Source: Vicinamibacteria bacterium
GTDB lineage: Bacteria; Acidobacteriota; Vicinamibacteria; Marinacidobacterales; Marinacidobacteraceae
Length of the DNA stretch: 64,000 nucleotides
Reading direction: 5' to 3'
NCBI GenBank assembly: GCA_963668695.2
Contig: CAXXLQ010000004.1
Span: 2,176,001-2,240,000 of the forward strand
The position numbers and the translations under genes were made by a program. Under the pieces are notes generated by a model, which did not search any database, was not told the origin of the DNA, and was given only the letters and a program-made list of their open reading frames with translations. Of this stretch, positions 11,956 to 60,205 are shown one piece after another (the first letter of the stretch is position 1; each line of letters starts with the position of its first letter).

Positions 11956-12531
11956 ATGTCTCGATCGCACCCGCAGCTCGCGCCTCTCGCGCTCATCGCC
12001 GCTCTCGGCGGTGCGGGCGTCGCCGCGTCCCAGGAAGCGGATTTCTCCGGGGTCTACAACTTCGTGAAGATCTCCGACCAGCTCTCCACCTCCGGCCAGA
12101 TCTCCCTGGACGACATCGAGGCGGTGGACTCCGCGGGCTTCGACGTGGTGGTGAACCTCGCCCCCGCCCGCTGGGAGCGCAACTTCGAGGAGGGCTTCCG
12201 GGTCACCCAGGCCGGGATGACCTATATCCAGATCCCGGTGGACTGGGCGAACCCGGCGCTCCGGGATCTCGAGCTCTTCTTCGACGTGATGGAGGCGAAC
12301 GAGGACCGGGACGTGTACGTCCACTGCTTCGCCAACATGCGCGTCTCGGTCTTCGTGTACCTCTACCGGACGCTCCGCAAGGGAGTTTCCGAGGCCGAGG
12401 CCTGGCAGGACGTGCTGAAGGTCTGGGATCCGCCAAACAACCCCGAGACCCCCCAGTGGCCCCGCTTCATCACGGCCGCGAAGGAGCGGTTCGGAAGGGG
12501 GGCATCTGATCCGGGTAGCGATACGAAGTGA
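11956..12531 (+). CDS. Secreted protein-tyrosine-phosphatase-fold protein (DUF442/Blh-like)
   Basis: GAGGAGG RBS, signal peptide, LSTSGQI, VVNLAP, YIQIPVDW and HCFANMR (Cx5R-like) motifs. The last ~15 codons are encoded by repeat B. Confidence 0.8.
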   Translation: MSRSHPQLAPLALIAALGGAGVAASQEADFSGVYNFVKISDQLSTSGQISLDDIEAVDSAGFDVVVNLAPARWERNFEEGFRVTQAGMTYIQIPVDWANPALRDLELFFDVMEANEDRDVYVHCFANMRVSVFVYLYRTLRKGVSEAEAWQDVLKVWDPPNNPETPQWPRFITAAKERFGRGASDPGSDTK

Positions 12532-13510
12532 GGTTGTGTGGGGGGTGAACCCCCCTTCCGAACCGCCCCGGCGCTTCGCGCCGGCTCGACCCACCAAGCG
12601 GTTTCCGGATGGGGCCAGACAGAAGATTTGGTCCGGGTCTTCTTGCCCGGGCGAGTCCGGCCCCCTCCAGCAACAGCCCGGCGCTTCGCGCCGGCAATCG
12701 AAACTCCCTTGCGCGCCTTCGGCGCGCTGCGGCGAGTTCCGATTGGTCCTTACCGTCTTGTGAAAGGGGGTCACCCCCTTTCACACTTTCCCCCGAAATC
12801 GCTCGCAGCGAACCAGAGGTTCGCTGCCATTCGTTTGTTGCGCGGTCGGCAGTACGCCGCCGGTTCTGATGTGAGGGCTGCGGACCCGCGTATCGCCGAG
12901 GGTGAAGAAGCGCGGGGACGGCTTGGAGCGCAGACCTCCGGTCGGCACCCCGGCCCGCAGGGCCGCGAACCGCGTATTGCCGATCCACGTGAAGCGCGCG
13001 CGACAGCGGGCCCCCACCGGGAGAACTGGCCACCGGTCTCCGACCGGCATCGCGCGGGAGCGCGAAACCTGCGCCGACGACGCTGCGCTACGCCAATGTG
13101 AGGGCCGCGAAGCCGCGTACCGCTGACCTGCATGGAGTGCGGCCGGGGTAGGGAACGCCGGTGTTCACACCGGCACAAGTCCGGAGCGGTCCGGGGACGG
13201 GGGCACTCCTCCCGACGAATCCAATCGAGACAGGTTAGGACGGGTGAGCCCCCGTCCCCGAACCGCCCGGCGCTTCGCGCCGGCAATCGAAACTCCCTTG
13301 CGCGCCTTCGGCGCGCGGCGGCGAGTTCCGATTGGTCCTTACTGATTGTGGAAGGGGGGCGGTGGCCCCCCTTTCACACTTTCCCCCCGGTCAGGCGGGC
13401 AGCGAACAGAGTTCGCTGCCATCAGTCTTTCCCCGGTGGGCTCTGCGCCACGAGATCGCGTACCGCCAACCCGCGCAGTGGTCCGGGAGGCCAGGGAACG
13501 CCCGCCACTG
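12484..13510 (+). repeat. Family B composite repeat cluster (three variable-loop units plus C/D/E/G/H modules)
   Basis: Stem-loop units at ~12484, 12597 and 13184. The AATCGAAACTCCC...GAGTTCCGATT, TGTGAAAGGGG...CCCCTTTCACA and GCAGCGAAC...GTTCGCTGC hairpins each occur twice. Confidence 0.85.
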
Positions 13511-13557
13511 GCACAATCCCCACGATCACACCGGAAACCCGGTGGAGGGAGCACACC

Positions 13558-15309
13558 ATGCGCGACCGCAGGGCAGACAGCAGGGCACTGGCCGCGGCTC
13601 GGCCGCTCGCCATCATCGCGGCGCTCGCCGCGTTCGGTTGTGGGGGGCCCGGAGGCGCCCAGTTCTCGGTGACGTTCGGCGCGGACCGGAGTCCCGAGCC
13701 CCTGGACGGCCGGCTGGTCCTCATGCTCTCCCAGGACGACGCGGCGGAGCCGCGCTTCCAGATCGTGGACGGCCCGGACAGCCAGTTGGCGTTCGGGGTG
13801 GACGTCGAGGGGTGGGCGCCGGGCGAGCCGGTCACAGTGGACGGCGGGGCTTTCGGCTACCCGATCCGCAGCCTGGAGGATGTCCCGGCCGGGGAGTACC
13901 GGGTTCAGGCGCTGCTGAACCGCTATCAGACCTACCAGCGCGCCGACGGCCACACCGTCAAGCTTCCGCCCGACCGGGGTGAGGGACAGCAGTGGAACCG
14001 CAAGCCCGGGAACCTGCTCTCCACCCCGCAGACGGTCTCGCTGGGGCCGGGAGGACCGGCCCGCATCGACATCGTGCTCGACCAGGAGATCCCCCCGCTG
14101 GCGGTGCCGCCCGAGTCGGAATACGTGAAGCACGTGAAGATCCAGAGCGAGCTCCTCACCGACTTCTGGGGGACTCCCACCGAACTCGGGGCCTGGGTGC
14201 TCCTTCCGCACGGCTTCGACGAGCATCCGGAGGCGCGCTATCCGATCGCCATCAACCACGGCCATTTCCCCTACACCTTCGGCAACTGGCGGGAGGAGCC
14301 CCCGGACCCCGACCTGGAGTGCGAGTACTCCGCCCGGTTCGACCTCCCCTGTTACAACCGGATCCAGCAGGAACACGCGTGGCAGCTCCATCAGGACTGG
14401 ACCGGCGACGACTTCCCCCGGATGCTGGTGGTGGAGATCCAGCACGCCAATCCGTTCTACGACGATTCCTACGCGGTGAACTCCGAAAACCTCGGCCCCT
14501 ACGGGGACGCCATCACCTACGAGCTCATTCCCGAGATCGAACGCCGGTTCCGCGGGATCGGGGAGGGGTGGGCGCGCTTCCTCTACGGCGGCTCCACCGG
14601 GGGCTGGGAGGCCATGGCCGCGCAGGTGCTCTATCCCGAGGACTACAACGGGGCGTGGATCGCCTGTCCGGACCCCATCGACTTCCGGGCGTTCACCGTG
14701 GTCAACCTCTACGAGGACGAAAACGCCTACACCCTCGACAGCGCGTTCAAGCGGACCCCCAGACCCGGGCGGCGGGACGGACGGGGACACGTCGCGGCGA
14801 CGCTCGCGGAGATGAACCACCGGGAGCTGGTGCTGGGAACCCGCACCCGGTCGGGGCAGCAGTGGGACGTGTGGGAAGCGGTCTACTCGCCGGTCGGCGA
14901 CGACGGGTATCCCCGCCGCATCTGGGACAAGGTCACCGGCGAGATCGACCCGGAGGTGGCCGCCTACTGGCGGGAGAACTACGACCTCAGCTACATCCTG
15001 CGCCGCGACTGGGAGACCCTGGGGCCCCGGGTCGCCGGCAAGCTGCACATCTACGTGGGGGACATGGACAACTACTACCTGAACAACGCGGTGAAGCTCA
15101 CCGAGGACTTCCTCGAGGCCACCTCGGATCCCCCTTACGGCGGGGAAGTGGACTACGGGGACGGCGACGAGCACTGCTGGAACGGCGACCACACCCGCGG
15201 CAACGGGTTGTCCCGCCTCCGCTACATCCAGATGTTCGCCCCGCGCATCGTGGAGCGCATCCGGCGAAGCGCCCCCCCGGGCGCCGATACCTCAAGCTGG
15301 CGGTACTGA
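13558..15309 (+). CDS. Alpha/beta-hydrolase (esterase-like) lipoprotein
   Basis: GGAGG RBS, lipobox AFGC, nucleophile elbow GGSTGGWE, VGDMDNYY and EHCW motifs. Confidence 0.85.
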   Translation: MRDRRADSRALAAARPLAIIAALAAFGCGGPGGAQFSVTFGADRSPEPLDGRLVLMLSQDDAAEPRFQIVDGPDSQLAFGVDVEGWAPGEPVTVDGGAFGYPIRSLEDVPAGEYRVQALLNRYQTYQRADGHTVKLPPDRGEGQQWNRKPGNLLSTPQTVSLGPGGPARIDIVLDQEIPPLAVPPESEYVKHVKIQSELLTDFWGTPTELGAWVLLPHGFDEHPEARYPIAINHGHFPYTFGNWREEPPDPDLECEYSARFDLPCYNRIQQEHAWQLHQDWTGDDFPRMLVVEIQHANPFYDDSYAVNSENLGPYGDAITYELIPEIERRFRGIGEGWARFLYGGSTGGWEAMAAQVLYPEDYNGAWIACPDPIDFRAFTVVNLYEDENAYTLDSAFKRTPRPGRRDGRGHVAATLAEMNHRELVLGTRTRSGQQWDVWEAVYSPVGDDGYPRRIWDKVTGEIDPEVAAYWRENYDLSYILRRDWETLGPRVAGKLHIYVGDMDNYYLNNAVKLTEDFLEATSDPPYGGEVDYGDGDEHCWNGDHTRGNGLSRLRYIQMFAPRIVERIRRSAPPGADTSSWRY

Positions 15310-15310
15310 C

Positions 15311-15790
15311 GTCGAGCGGTTCGGAGGGGGGCGCCGGACCGGAACGGAGGCGGGGACTCAGCCCTGCTCAGACGGGTGCGCCCCCCCCCGAACCGCTCGG
15401 CGCTTCGCGCCGCGAATCGAAACTCCCTCGCGCGCTGGTGCGCGCTTCGGCGAGTCCCGATTCGTCGTTACCTTCTGGTGAAAGGGGGGCGGTGGCCCCC
15501 CTTTCACACTTTCCCCCCGGTCACGCGGGCAGCGAACGGAGTTCGCTGCCGTTGGTTTTCTTGCTCGGTGCGCGCTGCACCGTGAATCCTGTCCACAGCC
15601 GGCCCCTACACCCTGCTTCTCAGCGAACCGCAACTCCCTTGCGCGCGGGAGCGCCGGTCTTCATTCAGACCGGCATCGCTGCCCGGAGGGCAGCGAGACG
15701 CTGAAACCGCCGCGCCTGGATGGCACGGCGTTGATCAGTTCCCGCGGCGGCGAGTTCCGATTCGTTGTTGCCTTCTGGTGAAAGAGGCCA
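15311..15790 (+). repeat. Family B composite repeat; a partial second C/D module is cut off at ~15786
   Basis: Begins 2 nt after the stop codon with GTCGAGCGGTTCGGAGGGGGG, then loop, C, D, E and G modules. Confidence 0.85.
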
Positions 15791-22736: not shown

Positions 22737-23260
22737 CGCGACAGCGGGCCCCCACCGGGAGAACTGGCCGCCGGATCTCCGGCCAGGAGCGCCGGTCTTC
22801 AGACCGGCATCAAGTCCGGAGCGGTCCGGGGATGGGGGCACTTCTCCCGACAAGTCCGAATCACACAGACGGGATCGGTAGACCCCCATCCCCGAACCGC
22901 CCGGCGCTTCGCGCCCAGGGGTCGAGCGTTCCGGGAAGGGGGCACATCGCTGGACTAGTTCGGGTGGTCAAGTGGGAGAGAATTGAGCCCCCCTCCCGAA
23001 CCGCCCGGCGCTGCGCGCCGGAATCGAAACTCCCTCGCGCGCTGGCGCGCCCTTCGGCGAGTTCCGATTCGAGGTTGCCTTTTTGTGAAAGGGGGGCGCG
23101 CCCCCCTTTCACACTTTCCCCCCGGTCACGCAGGCAGCGAACGGAGTTCGCTGCCACTAGTTTTTCCCCGGTGGGCTCTGCGCCACAAGACCGAGTACTG
23201 CCGACCCGCGTCAAACGCGGCCGGGTCAGGGAACGCCGGTCAGTCCTCCCGGTGGGGGCG
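22737..23260 (+). repeat. Family B composite repeat (H, G, two variable-loop units, C, D, E)
   Basis: Loop units at ~22819 and ~22921; same modules as the other B loci. Confidence 0.85.
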
Positions 23261-24009: not shown

Positions 24010-24196
24010 CTAGCAGCCTGTGGCAAAACCCACGCGGCGTTCGACCGGCGATCCATCCCGGCTGAACCACTCCGCTTCGCTGCGTTCTGCGTTGCGTTTC
24101 GGTCGAAATACACCCGGTATTCCTCCCTCACGCGCCTTGTCAGCCGGGTGCCTCACCGGCCTCGGCGCTCACGTGGGTTTCACCACAGACTGCTAA
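24010..24196 (+). mobile_element. Family A MITE, copy A3 (minimal form with no H 20-mers)
   Basis: TIRs TAGCAGCCTGTGGCAAAACCCACG and CGTGGGTTTCACCACAGACTGCTA (21/24 match). Confidence 0.85.
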
Positions 24197-24265
24197 GTTT
24201 CCGGTCTGCTCGCGCCGGAGAGTTGTTTCGACGCTCCCGGCGGAGTCGCAACAAGGAGTTGTCCC

Positions 24266-26116: not shown

Positions 26117-26144
26117 CCTGCTCACTTCCAAGGAGAAATTGACG

Positions 26145-26867
26145 ATGACGATGAACCGCAATCGCTTCCGCGCCGCCGCGCTGGCGGCCGCTACCGCCCT
26201 CGCCTTGCCGGCGCTCGCCGGCGCCGCCAACGGGCCGTCGCGCGAAAACCCCCACCAGATCCTCGTGCGTGGGCCGATCAAGACCCGGGTGGTCATGGGC
26301 TCGGTGGGACGTGGGTACCTGGGCGTCCAGTTGCTGGACATCACCGAGGAACTGCGCGAGTTCTACGGTGCCCCGAAGGATGCCGGGATCCTGATCTCGC
26401 GGGTGGCCGCCGACAGTCCGGCGGCAGCCGCCGGGTTTGAGGTCGGCGACGTGATCACCGGGGTAGGCGGCGAACGGGCGCACACCTCGCGGGATGTCAT
26501 GCGTGAGGTGGCGCGGTTCGAGCCGGAAGACCAGGTCGCGGTGGAGGTCATCCGCGCGGGTGCTCCCCTCACCGTGAACGCCACGCTCGGCGAACGGGAG
26601 CGAGGCGTGTGGTTCAGCCGCGATTTCGGCGAACCCGAACTCCAGGAATTTCACTTCGAGATGCCTGAGATGCAGGGTCTCGAGGTGCTGCGGGACCTCC
26701 CGAGCACCATCAATGAGGCAACCCGGGAGGCGGTGCGGGAGGCGATGGAGGCAGCCCGCGAGCGCATGAGCGAGATCGATTTCGAGGGACTTAAGGAGCG
26801 CCTCGCGGAAACCGAAGCGCGCCTCCGCGAACTGGAGAAAAAGCTCGCGGAACGTCGGGAGGAGTAG
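26145..26867 (+). CDS. Secreted PDZ-domain protein
   Basis: AGGAG RBS, signal peptide, GYLGVQL and SPAAAAGFEVGDVI motifs, C-terminal coiled coil. Confidence 0.85.
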   Translation: MTMNRNRFRAAALAAATALALPALAGAANGPSRENPHQILVRGPIKTRVVMGSVGRGYLGVQLLDITEELREFYGAPKDAGILISRVAADSPAAAAGFEVGDVITGVGGERAHTSRDVMREVARFEPEDQVAVEVIRAGAPLTVNATLGERERGVWFSRDFGEPELQEFHFEMPEMQGLEVLRDLPSTINEATREAVREAMEAARERMSEIDFEGLKERLAETEARLRELEKKLAERREE

Positions 26868-27235
26868 GAGCGCCGGTGTTCACACCGGCATCAAGTCCGG
26901 AGCGGTCCGGGGATGGGGGCACTTCTCCCGACAAGTCCAAATCACACAGATTGGGACCGGTAGGCCCCCATCCCCGGTCCGCCCGGCGCTTCGCGCCGGG
27001 AATCGGACCTCCCTTGCGCGCCTTCGGCGCGCGGCGGCGAGTTCCGATTGGTCGTTACCTTTTGTGAAAGGGGGGATGCTCCCCTTTCACACTTTCCCCC
27101 CGGTCATGCGGGCAGCGAACAGAGTTCGCTGCCGTTAGTTTTTGCGTGTGGCTGCGCCGTGTGCTCGTGCGGGACGCAGGCCCGGGAACGCCGGTCTTCA
27201 GACCGGCACCCGCGGCCCGTAGGGCCGCGAACGGC
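26867..27235 (+). repeat. Family B composite repeat
   Basis: G module fused to the TAG, loop unit at ~26899, then C, D, E and G modules. Confidence 0.85.
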
Positions 27236-29804: not shown

Positions 29805-29913
29805 CGATAGGGAAACGCGATCCCAATCGTGTGCGCGCGGCTGTTGGCGGCGGGAGAAAAGCGCGGTCGGCAGCTCAGGTGCGGGCTCATCGCGGCGGGT
29901 TCGACTACTGTCC

Positions 29914-30155
29914 TTAACAGCCTGTGGCAAAACCCACGCGGCCCAGTTCTCCCGGTGGGGGCTCGACCGGCGATCCATCCCGGCTGAACCACTCCGCTTC
30001 GCTGCGTTCTGCGTTGCGTTTCGGTCGAAATACACCCGGGCCAGTTCTCCCGGTGGGGGCTCCTCCCTCACGCGCCTTGTCAGCCGGGCGCCTCGCCCCC
30101 ACCGGGAGAACTGGCCAACCTCGGCGCTCACGCGGGTTTCACCACAGGCTGTTAA
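29914..30155 (+). mobile_element. Family A MITE, copy A4, flanked by TTAA on both sides
   Basis: TTAA-CAGCCTGTGGCAAAACCC...GGGTTTCACCACAGGCTG-TTAA. Confidence 0.88.
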
Positions 30156-30901
30156 CGGTTGCAGCATCCCTCCCTTGGATCGCGTCTCGGAGCGGCACTA
30201 TCTGTCCCGTCGTCTGCCGGACGATCTGGAAGGCGCGCTGATTCCAGTCGCGCGGTCGGGATGGGGTTCGTGACATACCGGCACCGTGGCAGGGTCCGTA
30301 GGTCACGTCAACCCCCGCAGAATTCAAACTGAGCCACTACCTTCTAATCCACCTTCTTTCCCTCAGAGCCGTCGAAGGTAGATGAAGGACAGAAGGAGAG
30401 CTAGCGAAAGCGGAACCAGGTTTCCGCCGATCATCCACCGCTCCATCCTCTCCAGCGGCTATTCCGGAAAGGCCCACCACAACGCCAGGTTGAAGCAGAG
30501 TGATCTGGCCGCGGCGGCAACCATGAACCACCCTGACGCGCGATTGGCCGGATACCAGACCTCCGGAGACGAAAGGGTTTTTGGCGTCCTGAAGCCAAAT
30601 ATGCGGTTGGGGGACCTTGCCCAGGATCATCGGTATGGACGACGCCAAGACCACTAGCGGAACGACGTAGCCGAGCAGGTGTTGGCCATATTCCCTCCAA
30701 GTGAACCAGGGTGGCCGGGGGCGTGCTCCGCTTCAGCCCTCGTCTCCGACTGCCACCGGACACGAGCCATGGTATTCGACGACCCCGACAGTTGACAGGG
30801 GAGGCCGCCACGCGACATCCCGCAGCCGATTCAGCGCCGACATGCTCCGCTGCCAAGACCTGGAGCGCCTGAAGCCGGCTACCAAACGAACGTCAGTTCG
30901 T

Positions 30902-31186: not shown

Positions 31187-31450
31187 GGTGCCGGCCTGAA
31201 GGCCGGCGTTCCCAGCCTGCGCACCATCCTCCCTTCCGGGATTCACCCCGAGACGGGAACCAGCCCGGATGTCGGGGTTCTTCGCCGCCGTCCGCCTTCG
31301 GCGGGCTGTGCCGGCCGGAGGCCGGCGTTCCAAGCCGTCCCCGCGCTTTTTCTCCGGCCGCGATGCGCGATGCCGGTGTCAACGCCCCCGCCGGGAGGAC
31401 TGGGCCTCCCCGCTCTCGGTGCTTACCCGGGTTCCACCACAGGCCGTTAA
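31187..31450. repeat. G-type palindromes plus the right end of a family A MITE (A5)
   Basis: TGCCGGCCTGAAGGCCGGCGTTCCC; 31309-31353 is the reverse complement of a motif at ~12905; region ends GGGTTCCACCACAGGCCGTTAA, supplying the beta-lactamase-like gene's stop. Confidence 0.7.
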
Positions 31451-32469
31451 CGCACGAACAGGAAGTAGTCGTGCGCGGCGCGCGCCGCCTCGGCGATCGC
31501 CCGCTCCCGGTCGGGGACCGGGTCGTCCGACTCCTTGACGAAGGCGACCACCACCACGTGCCCGGCGTCTGACGGCAGGTAGACGATCCCCACGTCGTTC
31601 GTGGTGCGCCCGATGGTGCCGGTCTTGTGGGCCACCACGGTGCCCTCCGGCAAGCGGCCCTTCAGCCGACCGGCGCCGGTCTCGCACCGCTCCATGATGT
31701 CGATCAGGAGGTCCCGGCTCGCCTGCGAGAGTCCTTCCCCGTTCCAGATCTTGACGAGCAGGTCTGCCATCCCCCGCGGGGTCGCGGTGTCCCTGGGGTC
31801 CGCCTCGAATCCGTCGCGGGCCATGGCGCGATCCTCTTCGGAGACCTGCTCGTAGTACTCGGTGTAGGTCGCGCGGGTCCGCTCGCTGCGCGGCGGCAGC
31901 CCTTCCGCCCCCACGTAGTCGGTGATCAGGTCCGCCGTCGAGCGGGCCACCCGGACCCCCTCCACGCCGAGTTCCGCCATCCGGGCGGTGACCCGCTCGC
32001 CGCCGCCCGCGGTCTTGAGGCAGAGGTCCGTTGCCGAGTTGTCGCTGATGAGCAGCATCAGCTCCATCAGGTTCCGGATGGAGAGCGAGACGCCGGGATC
32101 GTCGAAGAGCCGGCCCAGGATCCCGCTGCCCGGCGAGAGGTCGGAGAGGTCCAGCTCGATCATGTGGTCGAGGCCGAATTCGCCCTCGTCCACCCGGTGA
32201 AGCAACTCCATGGCGATGGGGACCTTGTAGGTGCTCGCCATCGGGAAGGCCTCGTCCGGATGGAGGTAGGCGGTCCGTCCGGACTCGAGGTGGACGGCGG
32301 CCAGCCCGAGCTTGCCCCCAAAAAGCTGGTCGAGGCGCCCCCATTCCTCCTCGAGGGCGGTCTCGGTGCCGGTCTGGGCGAGCGCGAGCGGCGCGGCCAG
32401 CAGTGTGGCCAACGCGGCGGCGGTGATCCGGCCGGCGGTGCGGCCAAGGAGCGGAGTGCGGTTTCGCAT
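31447..32469 (-). CDS. Class A beta-lactamase-like serine hydrolase (no Glu166 equivalent), secreted
   Basis: FPMASTYK (SxxK), ISDNSATD (SDN), DPRDTATP and HKTG motifs; signal peptide. Confidence 0.88.
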   Translation of the reverse strand: MRNRTPLLGRTAGRITAAALATLLAAPLALAQTGTETALEEEWGRLDQLFGGKLGLAAVHLESGRTAYLHPDEAFPMASTYKVPIAMELLHRVDEGEFGLDHMIELDLSDLSPGSGILGRLFDDPGVSLSIRNLMELMLLISDNSATDLCLKTAGGGERVTARMAELGVEGVRVARSTADLITDYVGAEGLPPRSERTRATYTEYYEQVSEEDRAMARDGFEADPRDTATPRGMADLLVKIWNGEGLSQASRDLLIDIMERCETGAGRLKGRLPEGTVVAHKTGTIGRTTNDVGIVYLPSDAGHVVVVAFVKESDDPVPDRERAIAEAARAAHDYFLFVR

Positions 32470-40266: not shown

Positions 40267-40377
40267 TTTTCAGGTAGTGTTAGGTTCAGATTACGCCGCA
40301 ATCCGGCGTTCACGGAACAGCAGCCGTGTGATAGCGTTTCTCTCTCAACTGAGGTGCCGGGAGGCTTAGGGGGGACC

Positions 40378-40671: not shown

Positions 40672-41335
40672 CGTCGAGCGGTCCGGGAGCGGGGGCTTAG
40701 TTCTCCATCGGTTCGGAACGCGGCGACCGTCTACGTCAAGCCCCCGCTCCCGAACCGCCCGGCGCTTCGCGCCGGCAATCGAAACTTCCTTGCCCGCCTC
40801 CGGCGGGCGGCGGCAAGTTCCGATTGGTCGTTACTTTTTGTGTGAAAGGGGAGAATCCCCCCTTTCACACATTCCCCCGAAAACGCGGGCAGCGAACGGA
40901 GTTCGCTGCCATCAGTTTTTTGCGCGCTCGGCTAAGCGCCGCCAACAGCAGATGGCGCGCTGGCCCGGGAACGCCGGACCTCTGGTCGGCACCAGGTCGA
41001 GCGGTCGCCGGACGGGGCCTTGATCTGGTGTAGCGTTCGGTCGTGGTTCTGGTTGGAGTTGGGGCCCCGTCCGGGGACCGCCCGGCGCTTCGCGCCGGCC
41101 TTCCGAAGTGCGGCGAGAGCCGCACGGAGATCCCGGAGCGGGAGGGGTTGGGGTCGGGGCACCCGACTCCCAGCCGCTCCTGGCTCGGGAATCGAAACTT
41201 CCTTGCCCGCCTCCGGCGGGCAGAGGCAAGTTCCGATTGGTCGTTGTTGATTTGTGAAAGCGGGGGTGCCCCCCTTTCACACTTTCCCCCCGGTCACGCG
41301 GGCAGCGAACGGAGTCCGCTGCCATTGTTTCTTAC
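40672..41335 (+). repeat. Two tandem family B composite repeats
   Basis: Loop units at ~40673 and ~40995; C/D/E modules twice; F module at 41100-41190. Confidence 0.85.
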
Positions 41336-43139: not shown

Positions 43140-43390
43140 GGGCAAGGCCCTCCTTGACGAGAGGCGATTTGGCTCAAAACTCTATGGGACAACACGAACC
43201 GAGGTCGAAATTCGCAAGTCGCGCACCAGGGACCGCTTTTCGAAGACTCATCATAAGTCATTGAAAAAACGAAAGTTGTGTGCCGTCTGAGCGATGGCCT
43301 GTTTCCATTCTCCAAAAAGTTGAATTTCGCTTCGGATTCCCGTTCCCGAAATGGGACGCGTGGAAGCAGGCAAGCTCCATAATTCCCCGC

Positions 43391-44230
43391 GTGAAGCACC
43401 GCACGGCTTCTCCCGAACTCCGGACCCGCCTCGGCGTCGCTCCGCGCATCAACCCGGAGGTTGAGGTTCGAACCAGGGTGGGGTTTCTGCGGGCCTACCT
43501 CGTTGCGAGCCGGCAGCGGAGCCTGTGGCTCGCCGTCTCCGGCGGCGTGGATTCGGCGCTCACCGGGCGGCTTTGTTCCCTCGCGGTCGCCGCCGCCAAC
43601 CGGGACGGGGCGGCGTTGTGTTTCGTGGCGGTGCGGCTTCCCTACGGGAGGCAGCGCGATGCAGCCGATGCCGACCGGGTTCTGAAGTGGATCGAACCCT
43701 CGGAAGTGGTCAGCGTGAATATCAGGAGGGCGGTCACGGCCCTGGAAGCGTCACTCCCGAGAGTCCAGCTGGATGCCAGCTCCCAAGCGTCCTGCGACTA
43801 CGCCCGCGGAAACACCAAGGCCCGGATGCGAATGGCGGTGCAGTACCACCTCGCGAACCTGGACGGCGGCCTGGTCGTGGGGACGGATCATTCCGCGGAG
43901 GCGCTCGTCGGGTTTTTCACCAAGTTCGGTGACGGAGGAGCGGACCTGTGTCCGCTCTTCGGGCTGAGCAAACGGCAGGTACGCCAGTTGGCGACCTATC
44001 TGGGAGCGCCGCCCGAGATCGTGGACAAGGAACCCACCGCCGACCTCGAGGATCTGCGTCCGGGCCTACCCGACGAGGAGGCCCTCGGGATCAGCTACCA
44101 GGAGATCGACGACTATCTGGAGGGACTCCCGGTACCCGTTGCCGTTGCCGACCGGATCGAGGCGATCCACCGCGCCACCGAGCACAAACGGCGCGGACCG
44201 GTGGTCCCGCAGGATACGTGGTGGCGGTAG
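43391..44230 (+). CDS. nadE: NH3-dependent NAD+ synthetase
   Basis: SGGVDS, VRLPYG, GNTKARMRM, GTDHSAE, GFFTKFGDG, PTADLE and TEHKR motifs. Start position is approximate. Confidence 0.93.
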   Translation: MKHRTASPELRTRLGVAPRINPEVEVRTRVGFLRAYLVASRQRSLWLAVSGGVDSALTGRLCSLAVAAANRDGAALCFVAVRLPYGRQRDAADADRVLKWIEPSEVVSVNIRRAVTALEASLPRVQLDASSQASCDYARGNTKARMRMAVQYHLANLDGGLVVGTDHSAEALVGFFTKFGDGGADLCPLFGLSKRQVRQLATYLGAPPEIVDKEPTADLEDLRPGLPDEEALGISYQEIDDYLEGLPVPVAVADRIEAIHRATEHKRRGPVVPQDTWWR

Positions 44231-44237: not shown

Positions 44238-44640
44238 GGTCGGGCGGTCCGGAAGGGGGGCGCCTGACCGGAACGACAGCCGAACGTTAGTTCTCTTGGT
44301 GGGTGCGCCCCCCTTCCGAACCGCCCGGCGCTTCGCGCCGGCTTCCGAAGTGCGGCGAGAGCCGCACGGAGACCCCGGAGCGGGAGGGGTTGGGGTCGGG
44401 GGACCCGACTCCCAGCCCCTCCTGGCTCGGGAATCGAAACTCCCTTGCGCGCCTTCGGCGCGCGGCGGCGAGTTCCGATTGGTCGTTGTTGATTTGTGAA
44501 AGGGGAGAATTCCCCCTTTCACGCATTCCCCCGAAATCGTCGGCAGCGAACGGAGTTCGCTGCCATTTGTTTCTTCGCGCGGTTGGCCGTACGCCACATT
44601 TCCTGAAGCGCGGGGACGGCTTGCACCGCCCCGCGTAGCG
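44238..44640 (+). repeat. Family B composite repeat
   Basis: Loop unit ~8 nt after the nadE stop, then F, C, D and E modules. Confidence 0.85.
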
Positions 44641-45599: not shown

Positions 45600-47039
45600 A
45601 TGAATCATAATACCAACGAAGCCTTCGACCTCGTGGTCATCGGGAGCGGCCCCGGAGGCTACGTGGCCGCCCTGAAGGCCCGGGCCGCCGGACTACGGAC
45701 GGCGATCGTGGAGAAGGAAGAGCGCTTCGGCGGCACCTGTCTTCACGTCGGCTGCATTCCGAGCAAGGTGTTCCTTCATACCGCGTCGCTGCTCGACGAG
45801 ATCCGGGCGGCGAACAAGGTCGGCATCACGGTGGCGGATCCGGCCCTCGATTGGAACGGACTGAAGCGCCGCAGTCGCCGGGTGATCGCCAAACTCGCCG
45901 GCGGCGTTTCGCTGCTTTTGAAGCGCGCGGGTGTCGAAACAGTTCGGGGATTCGGGAGACTGGCCGGTCCCGGTCGGGTCGAGGTCATCCCCGCGGAATC
46001 CGCCGAGGCGGGCGCCGCGCCCGGGGAGGCAGTGCGGTTCCTCAGTACTCGCAATGTGATCCTCGCGACCGGTTCCGAGGCCAGGACGCTGCCCTTCCTG
46101 CCGGTGGACGGCGATCGGATACTGACCAACGCGGAGATGTTCTCGCTTGATGAGCTTCCCGCCCGGTTAGGCATCATCGGGGCCGGGGCGGTGGGCGCGG
46201 AGTTTGCCTCCATGTTCCGTAGCTACGGCTCCCGCGTGGAACTCTTCGAGGTGCTGCCCCGCGTGCTGCCGCTCGAAGATGCTGAAGTCTCCGAAGTGGT
46301 GGGCAGGGCGTTTCGCAAACGGAAGATCCAGGTGCGAACCGAAGCCCGAGTGGAGGCCGCCGACGTCGTGGAAACGGGCGTTCAGGTCCGCTACCGCGTG
46401 GGTGAGGAGACCACGACAGCCGAATACGACCGGCTGCTGGTAGCGGTGGGCCGGGCTCCGCGGACGACGGATATCGGGCTCGAGACCGTCGGAGTCGAGC
46501 TGGAAAGGGGCGGCTTCATCCCGGTGGACTTAGCGTGCCGGACCAGGGCGCAAGGCGTCTTCGCCATCGGGGACGTCTTGGGGAGCGCCCAGCTGGCCCA
46601 CGTGGCCTCCGCCGAGGCGGAGGTGGCGGTAGCGACCATCGCCGGCCAGGACGTTCGGCCCCTTCGGCGGGACCGGATGCCGGCGGCCACCTACTGCGTA
46701 CCGGAGGTCGGCTCGGTCGGGCTTACCGAGGAAGCGGCCGCCGCTGCCGGTCACGAGATCCGGGTGGGCCGCTTCCCATTCGCCGCGAACAGCAAGGCGA
46801 ACATCCTGGGAGATCCGACCGGTTTCGTGAAGGTGGTCGCCGAGGCGCGCTATGGAGAGGTGCTCGGAGTCCACATCGTCGGCCCGCACGCCACCGACCT
46901 GATCGCCGAAGCGGTGGTCGCGCTCGAGCACGAAGCGACCCTGGAGTCGCTCGCGCGCAGCGTCCATCCTCACCCCACGCTTTCCGAAGCGGTGTCCGAA
47001 GCGGCGCTCGCTGCTTCCGGCACGCCCCTTCACGTTTAA
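45600..47039 (+). CDS. lpdA: Dihydrolipoamide dehydrogenase (E3)
   Basis: GSGPGGY, GGTCLHVGCIPSK, GAGAVG, AIGD and HPHPTLSE motifs. Confidence 0.96.
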   Translation: MNHNTNEAFDLVVIGSGPGGYVAALKARAAGLRTAIVEKEERFGGTCLHVGCIPSKVFLHTASLLDEIRAANKVGITVADPALDWNGLKRRSRRVIAKLAGGVSLLLKRAGVETVRGFGRLAGPGRVEVIPAESAEAGAAPGEAVRFLSTRNVILATGSEARTLPFLPVDGDRILTNAEMFSLDELPARLGIIGAGAVGAEFASMFRSYGSRVELFEVLPRVLPLEDAEVSEVVGRAFRKRKIQVRTEARVEAADVVETGVQVRYRVGEETTTAEYDRLLVAVGRAPRTTDIGLETVGVELERGGFIPVDLACRTRAQGVFAIGDVLGSAQLAHVASAEAEVAVATIAGQDVRPLRRDRMPAATYCVPEVGSVGLTEEAAAAAGHEIRVGRFPFAANSKANILGDPTGFVKVVAEARYGEVLGVHIVGPHATDLIAEAVVALEHEATLESLARSVHPHPTLSEAVSEAALAASGTPLHV

Positions 47040-47277
47040 CAGCCTGTGGCGAAACCAACGCGGCCCAGTTCTCCCGGTGGGGGCTCGACCGGCGATCCAT
47101 CCCGGCTGAACCACTGCGCTTCGCTGCGTTCTGCGTTGCGTTTCGGTCGAAATACACCCGGGCCAGTTCTCCCGGTGGGGGCTCCTCCCTCACGCGCCTT
47201 GTCAGTCGGGCGTCTCGCCCCCGCCGGGAGAACTGGCCAACCTCGGCGCTCACGTGGGTTTCACCACCGGCTGTTAG
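47036..47277 (+). mobile_element. Family A MITE, copy A6a; its TTAA flank contains the lpdA stop
   Basis: TTAA-CAGCCTGTGGCGAAACC...GGTTTCACCACCGGCTG-TTAG. Confidence 0.85.
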
Positions 47278-47713
47278 CAGCCCGTGGACAAAGTGAACCG
47301 GCATTTGAGCCGCGATCCATCCCGGCCAAACAGCCTGTGATGAAACCCACGCGGCCCAGTTCTCCCGGTGGGGGCTCGGCCGGCGAACCATCCCGGCTGA
47401 CCGCGTCGCTTCGCGCCGCTCATCGTTGCGTTTCGGTCGAAATACACCCGGGCCAGTTCTCCCGGTGGGGGTTCCTCCCTCACGCGCCTTGTCAGTCGGG
47501 CGTCTCACCGGCCTCGGCTCTCACGCGGGTTCCACCACCGGCTGTTCACCGCCCCGCTTCGCGGTGCTCATCGTTGCGCATCGGTCGGAATACGCTTGGT
47601 ATTCCTCCCTTGCGCGCCTTGTCAGCCGGGCCCCCACCGGGAGGACTGGCCCCACCGGGAGAACTGAGCCTCGCCGCTCTCGGTGCTCCCCCCACTTTAT
47701 CCACGGGCTGCTG
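47275..47713 (+). mobile_element. Family A nested pair A6b (inner element 47329-47546 inside an outer element)
   Basis: Outer TIRs GCAGCCCGTGGACAAAGTG / CACTTTATCCACGGGCTGC match each other. Inner TIRs AACAGCCTGTGATGAAACCC / GGGTTCCACCACCGGCTGTT match each other. Confidence 0.85.
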
Positions 47714-48460
47714 ATGCGCCATTCGGGCGAGGCCGGCGCCAGTACCCCCGCAGCACCGCCGCTCTGGCGACTCGACGTGCGGCCGCTCGGCTACCGTCGC
47801 GCCTGGGAGTTGCAGCGGGAACTGGTCGGACGTCGGCAGCGGGAAGAAATCCCGGATGTACTTCTTCTCACCGAGCATCCGCCGGTTTTCACGCTGGGGA
47901 AGAGCGCCCACCGCGAACACCTCCTGGCGCCGCCGGCAGAACTCGCCGGTCGGGGCGCCGAGGTGATCGAGACGGATCGTGGCGGAGACGTGACCTTTCA
48001 CGGCCCCGGCCAGCTCGTCGCTTACCCGATCGTGCATCTGGCCGGCTGGAAGAAAGACGTCCACGCCTACCTGCGGGCGCTGGAGGCGGCCGCCATCGAA
48101 ACGGCGGCGTGGTTCGGGACGGCGGCGACGCGCCGTGAGGGGCTGACCGGGGTGTGGTGCTGCGCCGGAGGCGCTCCCCGCAAACTGGCTTCGATCGGGG
48201 TCCGGGTGTCGCGCTGGGTGGCCTCGCACGGCCTGGCTCTCAACGTGACCACCGATCTCGGCTGGTTCTCGCACATCGTGCCGTGCGGCATCCGGGATTC
48301 GGCGACCACCTCGCTCGAGCTCGAAACCGCGCGCTCGCTCACGGTGGACGCGGTGGCGGATCGGCTGGCGGTCTCGCTCGCCGGCGTCATGGGGCGCCGG
48401 ATTGCGGCCGCGCCGGATTCCTTCGCCGCCGAGTTCGGCTGCTCGCGCGCGCCTTCGTAG
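47714..48460 (+). CDS. lipB: Octanoyl-ACP:protein octanoyltransferase
   Basis: EHPPVFTLG, DRGGDVTFHGPGQLVAYPI, KLASIG, HGLALNV and IVPCGI motifs. Confidence 0.95.
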   Translation: MRHSGEAGASTPAAPPLWRLDVRPLGYRRAWELQRELVGRRQREEIPDVLLLTEHPPVFTLGKSAHREHLLAPPAELAGRGAEVIETDRGGDVTFHGPGQLVAYPIVHLAGWKKDVHAYLRALEAAAIETAAWFGTAATRREGLTGVWCCAGGAPRKLASIGVRVSRWVASHGLALNVTTDLGWFSHIVPCGIRDSATTSLELETARSLTVDAVADRLAVSLAGVMGRRIAAAPDSFAAEFGCSRAPS

Positions 48461-49544: not shown

Positions 49545-49786
49545 CTGCCGGCAGCGAACTTTGTTCGCTGCCCGCGTTATCGGGGGAAAGTGTGAAAGGG
49601 GGGATTCTCCTCTTTCACAAGAAGGTAACGACAAATCGGAACTCGCCGCCGCGCGCGGGGAGCGCGCAAGGGAGTTTTGATTTGCGGCGCGCAGCGCCGG
49701 GCGGTCCGGGCACGGGGCGAACCAAGCAGACCCATGCCACGAAACACCACCGGCAATGCTGGTGCGCCCCGTTCCCGGACCGCTAG
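49545..49786 (-). repeat. Family B composite repeat in reverse orientation, starting at the lipA stop
   Basis: Minus strand reads TAGCGGTCCGGGAACGGGG-49 nt-CCCCGTGCCCGGACCGCCC, then C, D and E. Confidence 0.82.
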
Positions 49787-50706
49787 GGGATCTGGTTCGC
49801 GGCGTGGTACGAACTTCTCACCAGCGGGCCCGCCTCCACGTGACGGAGCCCGATCGCCTTGCCCCGCTCGGCAACCGCGCGGAACTCGTCCGGCGGGACA
49901 AAGCGCTCGACGGGCAGATGCGCGGGAGTGGGCTGGAGGTATTGGCCCGCGGTGAGAATGTCCACGGAATTCCGCACGAGGTCTGCCATTAGCGAATCCA
50001 GTTCGTCGGCGGTCTCCCCGAGTCCGAGCATCACTCCGGTCTTGGTGAGCGCTTCCGGCCGGAGTTCCTTGGCGCGGCGGAGCAGGTCCAGCGAGCGCTG
50101 GTAGCGGGCGCCGGGACGGACGGCCTTGTAGAGGCGCGGCACCGTTTCCACGTTGTGGTTGAGGACCTCCGGGGCCTCCGCCATCACGATGGCGAGCGCC
50201 GCCGCATCCCCCTGGAAATCCGGAATCAACACCTCGACGGTGGTTTCCGGACAGCGCCGCCGGACCGCGCGGATGGTTTCTGCGAAGATTCCGGCGCCCC
50301 CGTCGGCGAGGTCGTCGCGGTTCACCGAAGTGATCACCGCATGGCGGAGATCCATGAGTTCGACGGCGTCCGCGACCCGCTCGGGTTCCTCGAGATCGAG
50401 GCCCACCGGGCGCCCGGTGGTCACTGCGCAGAACCGGCAGGCACGCGTGCAGATGTCACCCAGGATCATGAACGTCGCGGTTCCCTGGCCCCAGCATTCC
50501 GCGACGTTCGGGCAGCGCGCCTCTTCGCACACCGTGTGGAGGTTCTTCTCGCGAAGCAGCCTTCTGAGGCGCGCCCAGGCGGGGCCGGAGGGCATCCGCA
50601 CCTTGAGCCAATCCGGCCGGGGATGGCGCGCGGGTTTCGGTCCCGCTCCGGCGGTGGGGCTCAGCCCCGATCCGATGACCGGCAGGGGAACGACGGCGCC
50701 TGTCAA
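49783..50706 (-). CDS. lipA: Lipoyl synthase
   Basis: CEEARCPNVAEC, CTRACRFC, NHNVETV, GQYLQP and LVRSSY motifs. Confidence 0.97.
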   Translation of the reverse strand: MTGAVVPLPVIGSGLSPTAGAGPKPARHPRPDWLKVRMPSGPAWARLRRLLREKNLHTVCEEARCPNVAECWGQGTATFMILGDICTRACRFCAVTTGRPVGLDLEEPERVADAVELMDLRHAVITSVNRDDLADGGAGIFAETIRAVRRRCPETTVEVLIPDFQGDAAALAIVMAEAPEVLNHNVETVPRLYKAVRPGARYQRSLDLLRRAKELRPEALTKTGVMLGLGETADELDSLMADLVRNSVDILTAGQYLQPTPAHLPVERFVPPDEFRAVAERGKAIGLRHVEAGPLVRSSYHAANQIP

Positions 50707-54178: not shown

Positions 54179-55196
54179 GGCAGCCTGTGGTGGAACGCCA
54201 CGCGGCCCAGTTCTCCCGGTGGGGGCTCGGCCGGCGATCCATCCCGGCCAACAGTCGGTGATGAAACCCACGCGGCCCAGTCTCCCGGTGGGGGCTCGGC
54301 CGGCGATTCATCCCGGCCAAACAACCGGTGGTTCTCCCGGTGGGGGCTCGGCCGGCGATTCATCCCGGCCAAACAACCGGTGGTGGAACCCACGCGGCCC
54401 AGTTCTCCCGGTGGGGGCTCGGCCGGCGATCCATCCCGGCCAAACAACCGGTGGTGGAACCCACGCGGCCCAGTTCTCCCGGTGGGGGCTCGGCCGGCGA
54501 TCCATCCCGGCCAAACAACCGGTGGTGGAACCCACGCGGCCCAGTTCTCCCGGTGGGGGCTCGGCCGGCGATCCATCCCGGCTGAACCGCGTCGCTGCGC
54601 GCCGCTCATCGTTGCGTTTCGGTCGAAATACACGCGGTATTCCTCCCTCACGCGCCTTGTCAGCCGGGCGCCTCCCCGGCCTCGGCGCTCACGCGGGTTC
54701 CACCACCGGCTGTTCACCGCGTCGCTGCGCGCCGCTCGTCGTTGCGTTTCGGTCGAAATACACCCGGGCCAGTTCTCCCGGTGGGGGCTCCTCCCTCACG
54801 CGCCTTGTCAGCCGGACCCCCACCGGGAGAACTGCGCCTCCCCGGCCTCGGCGCTCACGCGGGTTCCACCACCGGCTGTTCACCGCGTCGCTGCGCGCCG
54901 CTCGTCGTTGCGTTTCGGTCGAAATACACCCGGGCCAGTTCTCCCGGTGGGGGCTCCTCCCTCACGCGCCTTGTCAGCCGGACCCCCACCGGGAGAACTG
55001 GGCCTCCCCGGCCTCGGCGCTCACGCGGGTTCCACCACCGGCTGTTCACCGCGTCGCCGCGCGCCGCTCGTCGTTGCGTTTCGGTCGAAATACACCCGGG
55101 CCAGTTCTCCCGGTGGGGGCTCCTCCCTCACGCGCCTTGTCAGCCGGGCGCCTCCCCGGCCTCGGCGCTCACGCGGGTTCCACCACAGGTTGCTAG
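54179..55196 (+). mobile_element. Family A nested MITE array A7 (6 left halves + 4 right halves)
   Basis: Left units of ~71 bp (one internally deleted) run to ~54582; right units end at 54714, 54880, 55046 and 55196 (ACAGGTTGCTAG). Confidence 0.85.
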
Positions 55197-56888: not shown

Positions 56889-56891
56889 TCC

Positions 56892-58298: not shown

Positions 58299-58305
58299 AC
58301 GCCGT

Positions 58306-59484
58306 ATGCCAATGGAGATCGTCCTCGCCGGAGCCCGGCGCACCCCGATCGGCCGGTTCGGAGGCTCCCTCGCTTCGCTGAGCGCGCCGGAGCTGGGAGC
58401 GGCCGCGGCCCGCAGCGCTCTCGAAGCCGCCGGCGTCCCCGCCGAGGCGGTGGACGAGGTCATCTTCGGCAACGCCCGGCAGGCCGGGGTCGGTCCGAAT
58501 CCCGCCCGTCAGGTCGGGCGGCGGGCCGGTCTCGCGGACCGGGTGCCGGCCCGGACCGTGAACCAGGCGTGCGCCTCGGGACTCCGGGCGATTCTGGACG
58601 CCGCCGCTTCCGTTCGGCTGGGAGACGCCGGGGTGGTCCTCGCCGGGGGCACCGAGAGCATGAGCAACACCCCTTTCCTGCTTCCGTCGGTCCGCTGGGG
58701 GCAACGGTTCGGCGACGGCTCGCTCGACGACGGGATGTACCGCGACGGTTTTCATTGCCCGCTCGCGGATCAGCTCATGGGCGAGACCGCGGAAACGCTG
58801 GCCGACCAGTACGGCCTCTCCCGCGACGAATGCGACCGCTATGCGGCGGCCAGCCAGAACCGCGCCGAGGCGGCGCGCTCGACGGGGCGCTTCGACGCCG
58901 AGATCGCTCCGGTTCGGATCGAGACCCGCCGGGGTGAGGGAGAGGTCGGCAGCGACGAGCACCCCCGCGACGGCGTGACGCCGGAGTCACTGGCGAAACT
59001 CCGGCCCGTGTTCCGGAAGGACGGGGTGGTCCACGCCGGGAACTCCTCGGGCATTACCGACGGCGCCGCGGCGGTGGTCGTGCTTTCCGCGGACCGGGCG
59101 GCCGAGCTTGGGGTTCGGCCGATGGCGCGCCTGGTGGGGTACGCGACCGCGGGCGTGGACCCCCGGGTGATGGGCATCGGACCGGTTCCGGCGGTACGCG
59201 ACCTCCTGGCCCGCACCGGGGAGAGTCTGGACAACGTGGCGCTCGTGGAGTTGAACGAGGCGTTCGCTCCCCAGGTCCTCGCTTGCGCCCGGGATCTGGA
59301 CCTCGATCCCGAGCGGCTGAACGTGAACGGCGGCGCCATCGCCCTCGGCCATCCCATCGGCGCCACCGGGGCGCGGATCGTCGTCACGCTGCTGCACGAG
59401 ATGGAGCGGCGCGATGTGCGGTACGGCATTGCCACGCTATGCGTCAGCGGCGGCATGGGTGTGGCGGCGCTGCTGGAGCGTTGA
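58306..59484 (+). CDS. Thiolase (acetyl-CoA C-acyltransferase), probably the 3-oxoadipyl-CoA step
   Basis: RTPIG, NQACASG, NEAFA, NGGAIALGHPIGATG and LCVSGGMG motifs. Confidence 0.93.
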   Translation: MPMEIVLAGARRTPIGRFGGSLASLSAPELGAAAARSALEAAGVPAEAVDEVIFGNARQAGVGPNPARQVGRRAGLADRVPARTVNQACASGLRAILDAAASVRLGDAGVVLAGGTESMSNTPFLLPSVRWGQRFGDGSLDDGMYRDGFHCPLADQLMGETAETLADQYGLSRDECDRYAAASQNRAEAARSTGRFDAEIAPVRIETRRGEGEVGSDEHPRDGVTPESLAKLRPVFRKDGVVHAGNSSGITDGAAAVVVLSADRAAELGVRPMARLVGYATAGVDPRVMGIGPVPAVRDLLARTGESLDNVALVELNEAFAPQVLACARDLDLDPERLNVNGGAIALGHPIGATGARIVVTLLHEMERRDVRYGIATLCVSGGMGVAALLER

Positions 59485-60205
59485 GCGGTTCGGAAGGGGG
59501 GCTCTCCAGCATGGTGACAATGGAAGGTGAGCCGGGGAACCGGTGAGCCCCCCTTCCGAACCGCCCGGCGCTTCGCGCCGCGCCGACCCATCGAGCGGTC
59601 CGGAAGCGGGAGCACATCTCTGACCCCGTTCGGGTTGTCGAGCGAGAGCGAGTTGAGCCCCCGCTCCCGAACCGCCCGGCGCTTCGCACCGCGTTTCCGA
59701 AGTGCGGCGAGAGCCGCACGGAGACCCCGGAGCTGGAGGGCTGGGGTCGGGGGACCCGACTCCCAGCCCCTCCTGGCTCGGGAATCGAAACTCCCTTGCG
59801 CGCCTGCGGCGCGCGACGGCGAGTTCCGATTCGTCGTTACCGATTATGAAAGGGGGGAATCCCCCCTTTCACACTTTCCCCCGAATACGCGGGCAGCGAA
59901 CAGAGTTCGCTGCCATGAGTTTTTGCTCGCTTGGTGGTGCGTCTACACGGGAACGCCGGTGTTCACACCGGCACCGGGAGAACTGGCCAGCATCGCGGCC
60001 GAAGGCCGCGAGACTCCCGCCGCCACGCTCGCCGATTAACCCGGCCGATGCGGGGACGGCGAAACGCCGTGCGGACGCGTGGGTGGCGTTGGGCCATCCT
60101 CGTTGCCTGCTGCGCCATGCGGGGATTGGCGACGGGAGTTTCGCTCCCCTGCGGGGAGTGATGCTGGCCAGTTCTCCCGGTGGGGGCCTGAAGACCGGCG
60201 CTCCT
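59483..60205 (+). repeat. Family B composite repeat (two loop units plus F, C, D, E, G, H)
   Basis: The thiolase TGA overlaps GAGCGGTTCGGAAGGGGGG; second unit at ~59592. Confidence 0.85.

Follow-up and report, generated by a model that had tools for sequence, protein, structure and literature searches.

A terminator-ending repeat mosaic with a variable hairpin head at gene ends in a Vicinamibacteria genome

In Streptococcus pneumoniae, short non-coding repeats (SPRITE, BOX, and RUP) that contain a Rho-independent terminator or resemble one accumulate behind genes, and a structured scaffold with variable internal segments is known from the bridge RNA of IS110/IS621, which is encoded next to the recombinase inside the element and whose loops match target and donor. 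For the REPINs (hairpin-forming doublets of repetitive extragenic palindromic sequences, REPs) of P. fluorescens SBW25, passages of Bertels & Rainey 2011 (PMC3116915) report conserved inverted ends, a poorly conserved spacer whose length is kept, and common compensatory changes, while the CGTC REPs are given in portions of Di Nocera et al. 2013 (PMC3733652) as an 8-9-bp stem with a 4-5-nt loop and a CCA tail. Here, we describe a hairpin, termed H1, that occurs 13 times in a stretch of 64,000 nucleotides (the window; G000:C4:2176001-2240000) from the 4.1 Mb genome (67.5% G+C) of a Vicinamibacteria bacterium. H1 is not a free-standing element but the opening hairpin of a larger mosaic, which is located at gene ends and closes with a terminator, a point that was missed in the original prediction made from the letters of the window. 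With a probability of roughly 60%, we take H1 to be the variable head of a lineage-specific and so far undescribed mosaic of the REP/REPIN/BIME type (BIME, bacterial interspersed mosaic element) that is found at gene and tRNA 3′ ends and is closed by a terminator.

H1 is a hairpin of about 85 nt. Its left arm reads (S)GTC-GAGCGGTYCGG, followed by 8-10 variable bases, and its complementary right arm ends in CCGRACCGCCC, after which the side hairpin H2 (CGGCGCTTCGCGCCG; CGGCGC-TTC-GCGCCG) follows in every copy, as had been proposed; the H1+H2 unit spans 100-104 nt. All 13 sites listed for the window proved to be real, as a covariance model built from them matches each at 65-92 bits, and the left-arm motif alone (up to 3 mismatches, both strands) gave 38 matches as compared to 9.6 +/- 3.0 in shuffled sequence (100 shuffles, largest 17). 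A repeat-depth map of the window against the genome then revealed that the entire stretch behind each H1 is repeated, in the order H1-H2-(C)-H3-H4-H5, with a length of ~270-370 nt and ~85 copies in the genome. Among the 65 H1 copies that a genome-wide scan for paired arms followed by H2 returned (66 pairs, one of them a chance hit with a 7-nt loop), at least 58 have H3 and H4 (mostly also H5) after H2, and about 13 carry a C module between H2 and H3; viewed from the other side, H2 lies upstream of 76 of the 85 H3-H4 units. H5 consists of a stem with a T-run and scores as a plus-strand terminator. A full example is found on the plus strand at 15311..15582, comprising H1, H2, H3 (AATCGAAACTCCC...GGCGAGTYCCGATT), H4 (GTGAAAGGGGGG...CCCCCCTTTCAC), and H5 (GGCAGCGAAC-GGAG-TTCGCTGCC with its T-run, a terminator-like site at 15528-15550, + strand).

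The start of 30 of the 65 copies falls between -54 and +13 nt from the stop codon of a co-oriented, coding-like open reading frame (ORF), as compared to 126 of 3000 random positions (4.2%) and 34 of 1058 positions outside called ORFs. The figure of 30 is a lower bound, since the gene caller, which is based on G+C at third codon positions (GC3), is conservative (2033 ORFs on the main contig, with at least one small gene missed); a 31st case, copy 40676 behind an ORF of 105 codons, was added by hand. Seven units share their first two bases with the stop codon (distance -2), reading T|GAGCGG in five cases and TAGGCGG in two; two further copies at distance -3 read TAGCGG, and in six copies the ORF continues for 14-54 nt into H1. 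Protein C-termini are encoded by the repeat itself, with 16 codons from H1 in the ORF at 11800-12531 of the window and 9 at G000:C4 ~2008545 (- strand). At C4:2008460, the left arm of H1 forms nine codons of a gene in all three species compared below, and in the relative G004 the orthologue of gene 13504-15309 reads ~14 codons from H1 before a stop inside it. Three copies in the G000 genome lie directly behind tRNA-like 3′ ends (judged from the flanks, with no tRNA finder); the window holds no tRNA.

It was furthermore found that the stem is kept. In 90 distinct sequences from several genomes, 96.7% of the stem cells are paired and two-sided changes occur at 12 of the 21 pairs. The number of doubly changed stem cells amounts to 101 versus 21.9 +/- 3.8 in shuffled controls (0 of 500 reach 101) and at most 34 with a slid partner, so that the covariation of the arms with kept pairing, which the original prediction had pointed out, lies above all controls on these 90 sequences; the counts overstate independence, because the rows are kin and aligned to the model. 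The mismatches that remain in the stem are one-sided, with 32 A.C versus 3 G.T at the 15 modelled H1 pairs, and 102 versus 14 in the G000 set when positions 2 and 8 are included, at both of which mismatches are habitual (A.C in 46 of 62 at position 2; C.A 29, C-G 18, T-A 13, and T.G 2 at position 8). An A.C mismatch corresponds to a G.T or G.U wobble on the opposite strand, and if the arms alone are folded, the bottom strand gives the more stable fold in 115 of 129 copies, by a mean of 3.9 kcal/mol. However, arm positions 9-21 show no such advantage of the bottom strand, and the energy difference is due to positions 2 and 8 alone. The strand bias argues for either a folding of the gene-antisense strand or two inherited mismatches combined with a mutation bias.

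The length of the interior (measured as the distance between 17-nt arms) is narrow, with 44 (1), 45 (12), 46 (12), 47 (23), 48 (4), 49 (7), 50 (3), 52 (1), and 58 (2) nt in the 65 copies, whereas arm pairs without the side hairpin (141 groups) show a spacing scattered over 0-101 nt. In a pooled set from the G000 genome and loci of its relatives (151 copies, 129 unique), 135 of 151 loops measure 45-49 nt and 143 of 151 measure 43-50 nt (mode 47, standard deviation, SD, 2.4), and the narrow loop length noted in the window is thus borne out genome-wide. The covariance model, for which 150 of 8574 first-look candidates were scored, gave 124 matches at E <= 0.01, corresponding to ~87 distinct places, the rest being weaker echoes on the opposite strand; MAFFT had placed some gaps inside the arms of the underlying alignment (A1), and the model still recovered every copy. 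Half of the copies are concentrated in 8% of the genome, as 33 of 65 lie within C4 1.93-2.25 Mb. The cumulative GC skew is flat at ~1.76-2.4 Mb, where H1 clusters, and elsewhere has its minimum at ~1.08 Mb and its maximum at ~3.06 Mb. A replication-coupled orientation as for IS200/IS605 was considered and rejected, since both orientations occur between the skew minimum and maximum and the orientation follows the adjacent gene. On the small contig C1 (144 kb), H1 copies are identical or nearly identical to those at C4 327-392 kb (C1:97168 = C4:350464; C1:121611 ~ C4:327172), and those at C1:42603 and C4:391710 have similar scores. This region may be present on C1 as a strain-variant duplicate, the contamination estimate being 9.3%.

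In sequence, the interiors are highly diverse. The 129 unique interiors form 72 groups at an identity of >=72%, a value that was the maximum in 2500 shuffled controls; 51 groups are singletons, and the largest family has 18 members. Kinship among the loops extends beyond the two sets of window copies originally named, as 22924 and 59593 both belong to the 18-member family. The central ~35 nt carry nearly no positional information (one representative per group), and in one pair of copies the central ~24 nt are wholly different between conserved loop shoulders. Within the largest family, no conserved inner fold was found, only weak and inconsistent pairs. An inversion of the interior between the arms was tested and discarded: among 12 reverse-complement loop pairs at >=70%, ten involve two copies that had been mis-oriented by the regular expression, and the other two reach 0.70-0.71.

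Two relatives, G001 and G004, are syntenic with the window, with third-codon divergences of 8.3% and 16%, respectively, over 10 genes, and allow orthologous sites to be compared. Ten such comparisons were made, two of which are mis-paired or weakly flanked; four show a conserved and four a replaced interior. At the conserved sites, 1/54, 4/43, and 6/42 loop positions are changed relative to G001, as compared to 0, 0, and 1 of 42 arm positions, while the single conserved orthologue in G004 has 5/45 changes in the loop and 6/42 in the arms. As the loop divergence is close to that of third codon positions, the loop is roughly neutral where it is conserved; relative to G001, change in the arms is far slower than in the loop. 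The ~45-nt interior has no sequence information of its own and drifts at about the synonymous rate at these sites.

Elsewhere, interiors are exchanged: an H1-H2 unit is duplicated or inserted beside one that is already present, and one of the two subsequently disappears. This is best seen at C4:2008460, where G004 has one H1, G001 has that H1 plus a new H1-H2 unit 5′ of it, and the G000 genome retains a remnant of the old left arm beside a different H1, a series from which it follows that swaps arise by unit gain and deletion. Near-identical tandem H1-H2 runs also occur, with periods of 105 and 116 nt. At the site 15311/15314, G001 has no H1, and G004 has one of another subfamily 55 nt further into the gene (upstream). 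At site 40676, collinearity of the three genomes extends from the small ORF to the end of the outer arm and resumes with the right outer arm to continue up to the end of H5, and the interior in between is 42% diverged in G001 (18/43) and belongs to another subfamily in G004. The H3 stem at 40790-40830 of the window is flipped from G-C to C-G on both sides between genomes ~5% apart (GCCCGCC...GGCGGGC vs GCGCGCC...GGCGCGC), which points to conversion from another copy or to a templated change. In G001, a 16-kb insertion relative to the window (L071, G001:C17:2400001-2420000) encodes an IS4-like DDE transposase, PPK2, a large serine recombinase, a TPR protein, and an outer-membrane barrel, and identical H1 mosaics stand before and after the transposase and PPK2 genes.

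With respect to its distribution, H1 is confined to a narrow lineage. At a model threshold of E <= 1e-5 and with at most 73 candidates scored per relative genome, it was detected in 18 of 55 genomes of the order, including 15/15 genomes of the genus (3 to at least 67 copies each) and 1/1 and 1/3 genomes of two other genera, as compared to 0/8 in the other four genera of the family and 0/8 (including the unpublished genome G027) and 0/19 in two other families. An exact H1 25-mer was found only in metagenome-assembled Acidobacteria (Vicinamibacteria, Candidatus Marinacidobacterium; several from sponges), with one exception, and was absent from viral contigs. The exception, L014, is labelled Gemmatimonadetes bacterium and holds the exact 25-mer, which may reflect mis-binning or transfer. 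A literature search on this clade and its repeats returned nothing relevant.

Compared with the described systems, H1 resembles the REPINs, as portrayed in the cited passages of PMC3116915, in its inverted ends, the variable spacer of kept length, the hairpin, the compensatory changes, the extragenic position, and the tens to hundreds of copies, and since the same traits are reported there, its anatomy represents no undescribed principle. It differs in that its arms are, by inspection, not small REP palindromes, that the G000 genome lacks a REP-associated tyrosine transposase (RAYT) and H1 does not lie beside the RAYT genes of relatives, that it is welded to four more hairpins ending in a terminator, and that its spacers are far more diverse, as the many singletons attest. 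The undescribed REPIN class of the original prediction holds for the anatomy, but neither for the defining partner, with no Y1 or RAYT gene here and H1 away from those of relatives, nor for a new principle. The REP mosaics and BIMEs of enterobacteria, as far as they are covered in the cited portions of PMC3733652, likewise combine a palindromic unit with other short motifs and lie mainly behind genes and between convergent or same-direction genes; some dimers of the GTAG- and CGTC-tagged REPs described there have spacers of similar length and different sequence, and the (S)GTC of H1 recalls the CGTC tag. Unlike the CGTC REPs outlined in that source, H1 has a ~20-bp stem and a ~45-nt interior, shows no sequence relation, and belongs to a different phylum (Acidobacteriota). 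The mosaic nonetheless has the make-up that characterizes the BIME/REP type, in which a palindromic unit and additional conserved motifs follow each other behind genes in a small number of fixed arrangements. From SPRITE, BOX, and RUP it differs in that sequence and host are unrelated, and we know of no hypervariable long-hairpin module in those repeats. With the bridge RNA, H1 shares the structured scaffold with variable internal segments; it differs by the lack of an adjacent recombinase and of loop matches.

We therefore favour the reading of H1 as the head of a REP/REPIN/BIME-type mosaic, in which the ~20-bp stem is kept and the interior is free. The stem would be held by selection for a hairpin in single strands, and both arms would be carried in one short recombination or duplication tract, so that arm covariation would arise because the hairpin is kept and the arms travel together in unit duplication, insertion, and loss. 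The narrow length would reflect a weak constraint on hairpin size and shared descent, and not a ruler for a guide. Judging from its orientation and T-run only, the mosaic may play a role at transcript ends, where it could serve as the upstream gene's 3′ untranslated end, consisting of a hairpin for stability or processing and a terminator. The mosaic itself would spread as selfish DNA through some enzyme. On this account, it offers a well-resolved example, from a little-studied phylum of sponge and marine symbionts, of the modular build of REP/REPIN-like repeats that sit exactly on gene ends and sometimes supply the stop codon or the last codons. As ~85 mosaic copies and other repeat families fill most of the intergenic space, assembly, the annotation of gene ends, and strain typing are affected.

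Several observations weigh against this interpretation. The one-sided mismatches imply that the stem pairs better antisense to the gene, which fits a role in a sense-strand 3′ untranslated region (3′-UTR) badly. Neither a mobilizing enzyme nor a target-site duplication was found, nor anything conserved upstream of the (S)GTC at the start of the unit. By rough, uncomputed reasoning, an SD of 2.4 nt in loop length is tighter than saturated neutral divergence would give, and the sample of ten orthologue comparisons, with its two mis-paired or dubious cases, is small. The loop at 40676 differs at 42% of its positions from that of G001 at identical length, with a local third-codon divergence of 3.7-4.7% and no closer donor in five relatives; neutral drift fails to explain this loop, which has changed ~ten times faster than its flanks.

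Among other explanations, H1 could be a true REPIN that was copied as single-stranded DNA (ssDNA) by the RAYT of relatives, a Y1 HUH transposase, and that was orphaned here by the loss of this gene; a decaying population of this kind would have diverse loops. We consider this unlikely, although besides the fitting anatomy a Y1_Tnp match is present in 13 of the 15 genomes of the genus and the Y1 protein of G001 reaches 94.7 bits with the NCBIfam model NF047646 'REP-associated tyrosine transposase' (cut-off 80). In RAYT-bearing G001, moreover, identical H1 copies stand in runs, the one-sided A.C mismatches would become G.T wobbles if the bottom DNA strand were folded, and the bottom strand of H2 reads GCGAAGC, an unusually stable DNA mini-hairpin. 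However, no H1 lies within ~1.5 kb of RAYT in any of four loci examined (four relatives), three of which have a different hairpin repeat adjoining the gene (GGGAACGCCGGT..ACCGGC hairpin; GGGAACGCCGG hairpin). The presence of H1 and Y1 disagrees in seven genomes, with H1 and no Y1 match in G000, G004, G015, G038, and G018 and the reverse in G016 and G040; in G000, which is 91.7% complete, no Y1_Tnp match was obtained, and tblastn with the G001 RAYT reached E 0.06 at best. Local tandem or island duplications account for the identical copies in G001, the orientation of H1 follows the neighbouring gene and not the replichore, and by inspection the sole self-complementary stretch of the arm consensus GAGCGGTYCGGRRNGGGGS, CGGTCCG/CCGG, is too short to fold. 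Less likely still is a miniature inverted-repeat transposable element (MITE) whose ~20-bp arms serve as terminal inverted repeats for a DDE transposase in trans, for example of the IS630 or IS4 types present in these genomes. Such an element would account for the inverted ends, the many dispersed copies, the patchy distribution, and sites that are occupied in one species but vacant or taken by something different in another, and it would fit the CCAAG (5 nt) at both junctions of one insertion in G001 as well as the IS4-like DDE gene among amplified G001 copies. No consistent target duplication or target motif emerged, however, the sole candidate gap in the empty-site comparison being filled by another repeat in the relative, and the inner arm halves differ between subfamilies yet pair, which a terminal repeat read by a protein would hardly tolerate. 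H1 furthermore occurs almost never without H2-H5, the H1 arms were not seen to enclose any long element (spacing peaks at 41, 59-63, and 160 nt within the 300 nt examined), no autonomous relative was found (other genomes not searched), and the TA-flanked MITEs of this genome, which occupy the same intergenic gaps, belong to a different family.

The variable interior has also invited more active interpretations. A nearly fixed length and a very diverse loop inside a conserved scaffold are what a programmable segment of a structured RNA, such as a guide of the bridge-RNA or omega-RNA kind, or a captured spacer would show, and a structured non-coding RNA with a reprogrammable segment was one of the two options in the original prediction. 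We give this almost no credence, as the 65 loops of the G000 genome have no match outside the family in their own genome beyond chance hits of 16-17 nt (E 0.006-0.03), longer matches being other H1 copies; the loops themselves were not searched against phage or plasmid libraries. TnpB is represented in G000 only by a sub-threshold match of 21.7 bits to the TnpB zinc-ribbon domain (IscB not searched), the single IS110 (C4:482399) lies ~1.7 Mb away with no H1 in its locus, an Rfam scan of the whole window gave no match, and the motif, as noted, is absent from viral contigs. The neutral drift of conserved loops and the lack of a conserved inner fold in the largest loop family speak against a guide as well, and the tandem arrays are duplicates and not arrays of different 'spacers'. 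A further possibility, to which we attach very little weight, is that the interior is actively diversified in place, by hypermutation of the loop or by site-specific exchange of cassettes at the outer arms. The fast, length-true change at 40676 with no donor found, the pair of copies that differ only in the central ~24 nt, and the different interiors in about half of ~8 usable orthologue comparisons would fit. At 40676, however, transitions (10) and transversions (8) are mixed and follow neither a deaminase-like nor an adenine-specific pattern, the divergence of other orthologous loops is close to neutral, the swap at 2008460 is ordinary unit gain and deletion, and no two loops are reverse complements of each other when the two mis-oriented copies are disregarded. 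It is similarly improbable that H1 folds antisense to the gene, as ssDNA or antisense RNA, and that dedicated machinery turns over its interior at fixed gene-end sites by length-preserving exchange or local hypermutation. If true, H1 would be a diversifying gene-end cassette instead of a passive filler, and the one-sided A.C mismatches, the 42% diverged loop in 95% identical flanks, and the tight length would be explained jointly. An integron attC site was tried as well and rejected, as the best TIGR02249 score of 79 bits lies far below the cut-off of 265 and the neighbours are syntenic housekeeping genes; the attC core sites, RYYYAAC...GTTRRRY, are not found at the ends of H1.

Returning to the window, the H1+H2 units lie on the plus strand unless stated otherwise. 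The unit at 12481..12583 (83.2 bits) is entered for 48 nt by the upstream ORF 11800-12531 and forms a tandem pair with that at 12593..12693 (78.2 bits with the covariance model), whose right arm is decayed. The copy at 13181..13282 belongs to the GGGGAYGGGGG arm subfamily and is preceded by a hairpin of another repeat family (GCCGGTGTTCACACCGGC), and the unit at 15311..15412 starts 4 nt past the TGA of gene 13504-15309. A second tandem pair comprises 22816..22916, which is absent in G001, and 22921..23020 of the CACATCGCTGGAC loop family, with 4 loop positions changed in the G001 orthologue. The unit at 26897..26998 starts 32 nt past the stop of a PDZ gene (26139-26867), that at 40673..40774 starts 4 nt past the TGA of the small ORF 40354-40671 (105 codons), and that at 40995..41097 represents the CCCCGGACGGGG arm subfamily. 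Located 11 nt past the stop of the NAD synthase gene (43280-44230), the unit at 44239..44340 is followed by the optional C module. The only minus-strand unit, 49685..49788, has its first bases overlapped by the TAG stop of the lipoyl synthase gene (49783-50706, -). In the third tandem pair, the first two bases of 59480..59580 overlap the TGA of the thiolase gene (58306-59484), with an orthologue in G001 and none in G004, and the second unit, 59590..59691, falls into the CACATC loop family. The ordinary genes beside H1 include those for NAD synthase, lipoyl synthase, thiolase, an M20 peptidase, and a PDZ protein. A scan of the 38 window ORFs against Pfam yielded housekeeping or metabolic genes and no transposase or recombinase, in agreement with the earlier remark that no candidate enzyme is encoded in the window.

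A GGGAACGCCGGTCTTCAGACCGGC hairpin repeat stands just upstream of RAYT in three of the four loci of the relatives and reaches a depth of 60-95 in the G000 genome, which makes it a candidate for the cognate REP of RAYT. In G001, RAYT lies in a variable gap (L115 1246-1812; G001:C17, ~5 kb before the stretch syntenic to window position 7705), and in the corresponding gap of the G000 genome (window 2537-6739) a hybrid sensor kinase and repeat arrays are found instead.

Other repeats occur in the window as well. Far commoner than H1 is a repeat of ~190 bp with inverted ends (CAGCCTGTGGCAAAACCCACGCGG...) that is TA-flanked as CTAG/CTAAG and gives ~700-930 BLAST hits in the genome; it is seen at 24010-24200 and also at 468-728, 29896-30176, 31187-31464, and 47016-47729. 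Tandem arrays at 5739-6471 and 54210-55147 have periods of 71 and 166-184 nt with 2-3.5 copies and 93-99% matches, and pieces of them are also found in high-copy repeats (CCAGTTCTCCCGGTGGGGGC...). Finally, at 15636-15787, an H3 hairpin is seemingly split at its apex by an inserted repeat with GGAGCGCCGG ends, which looks like a nested insertion of one repeat family into another.

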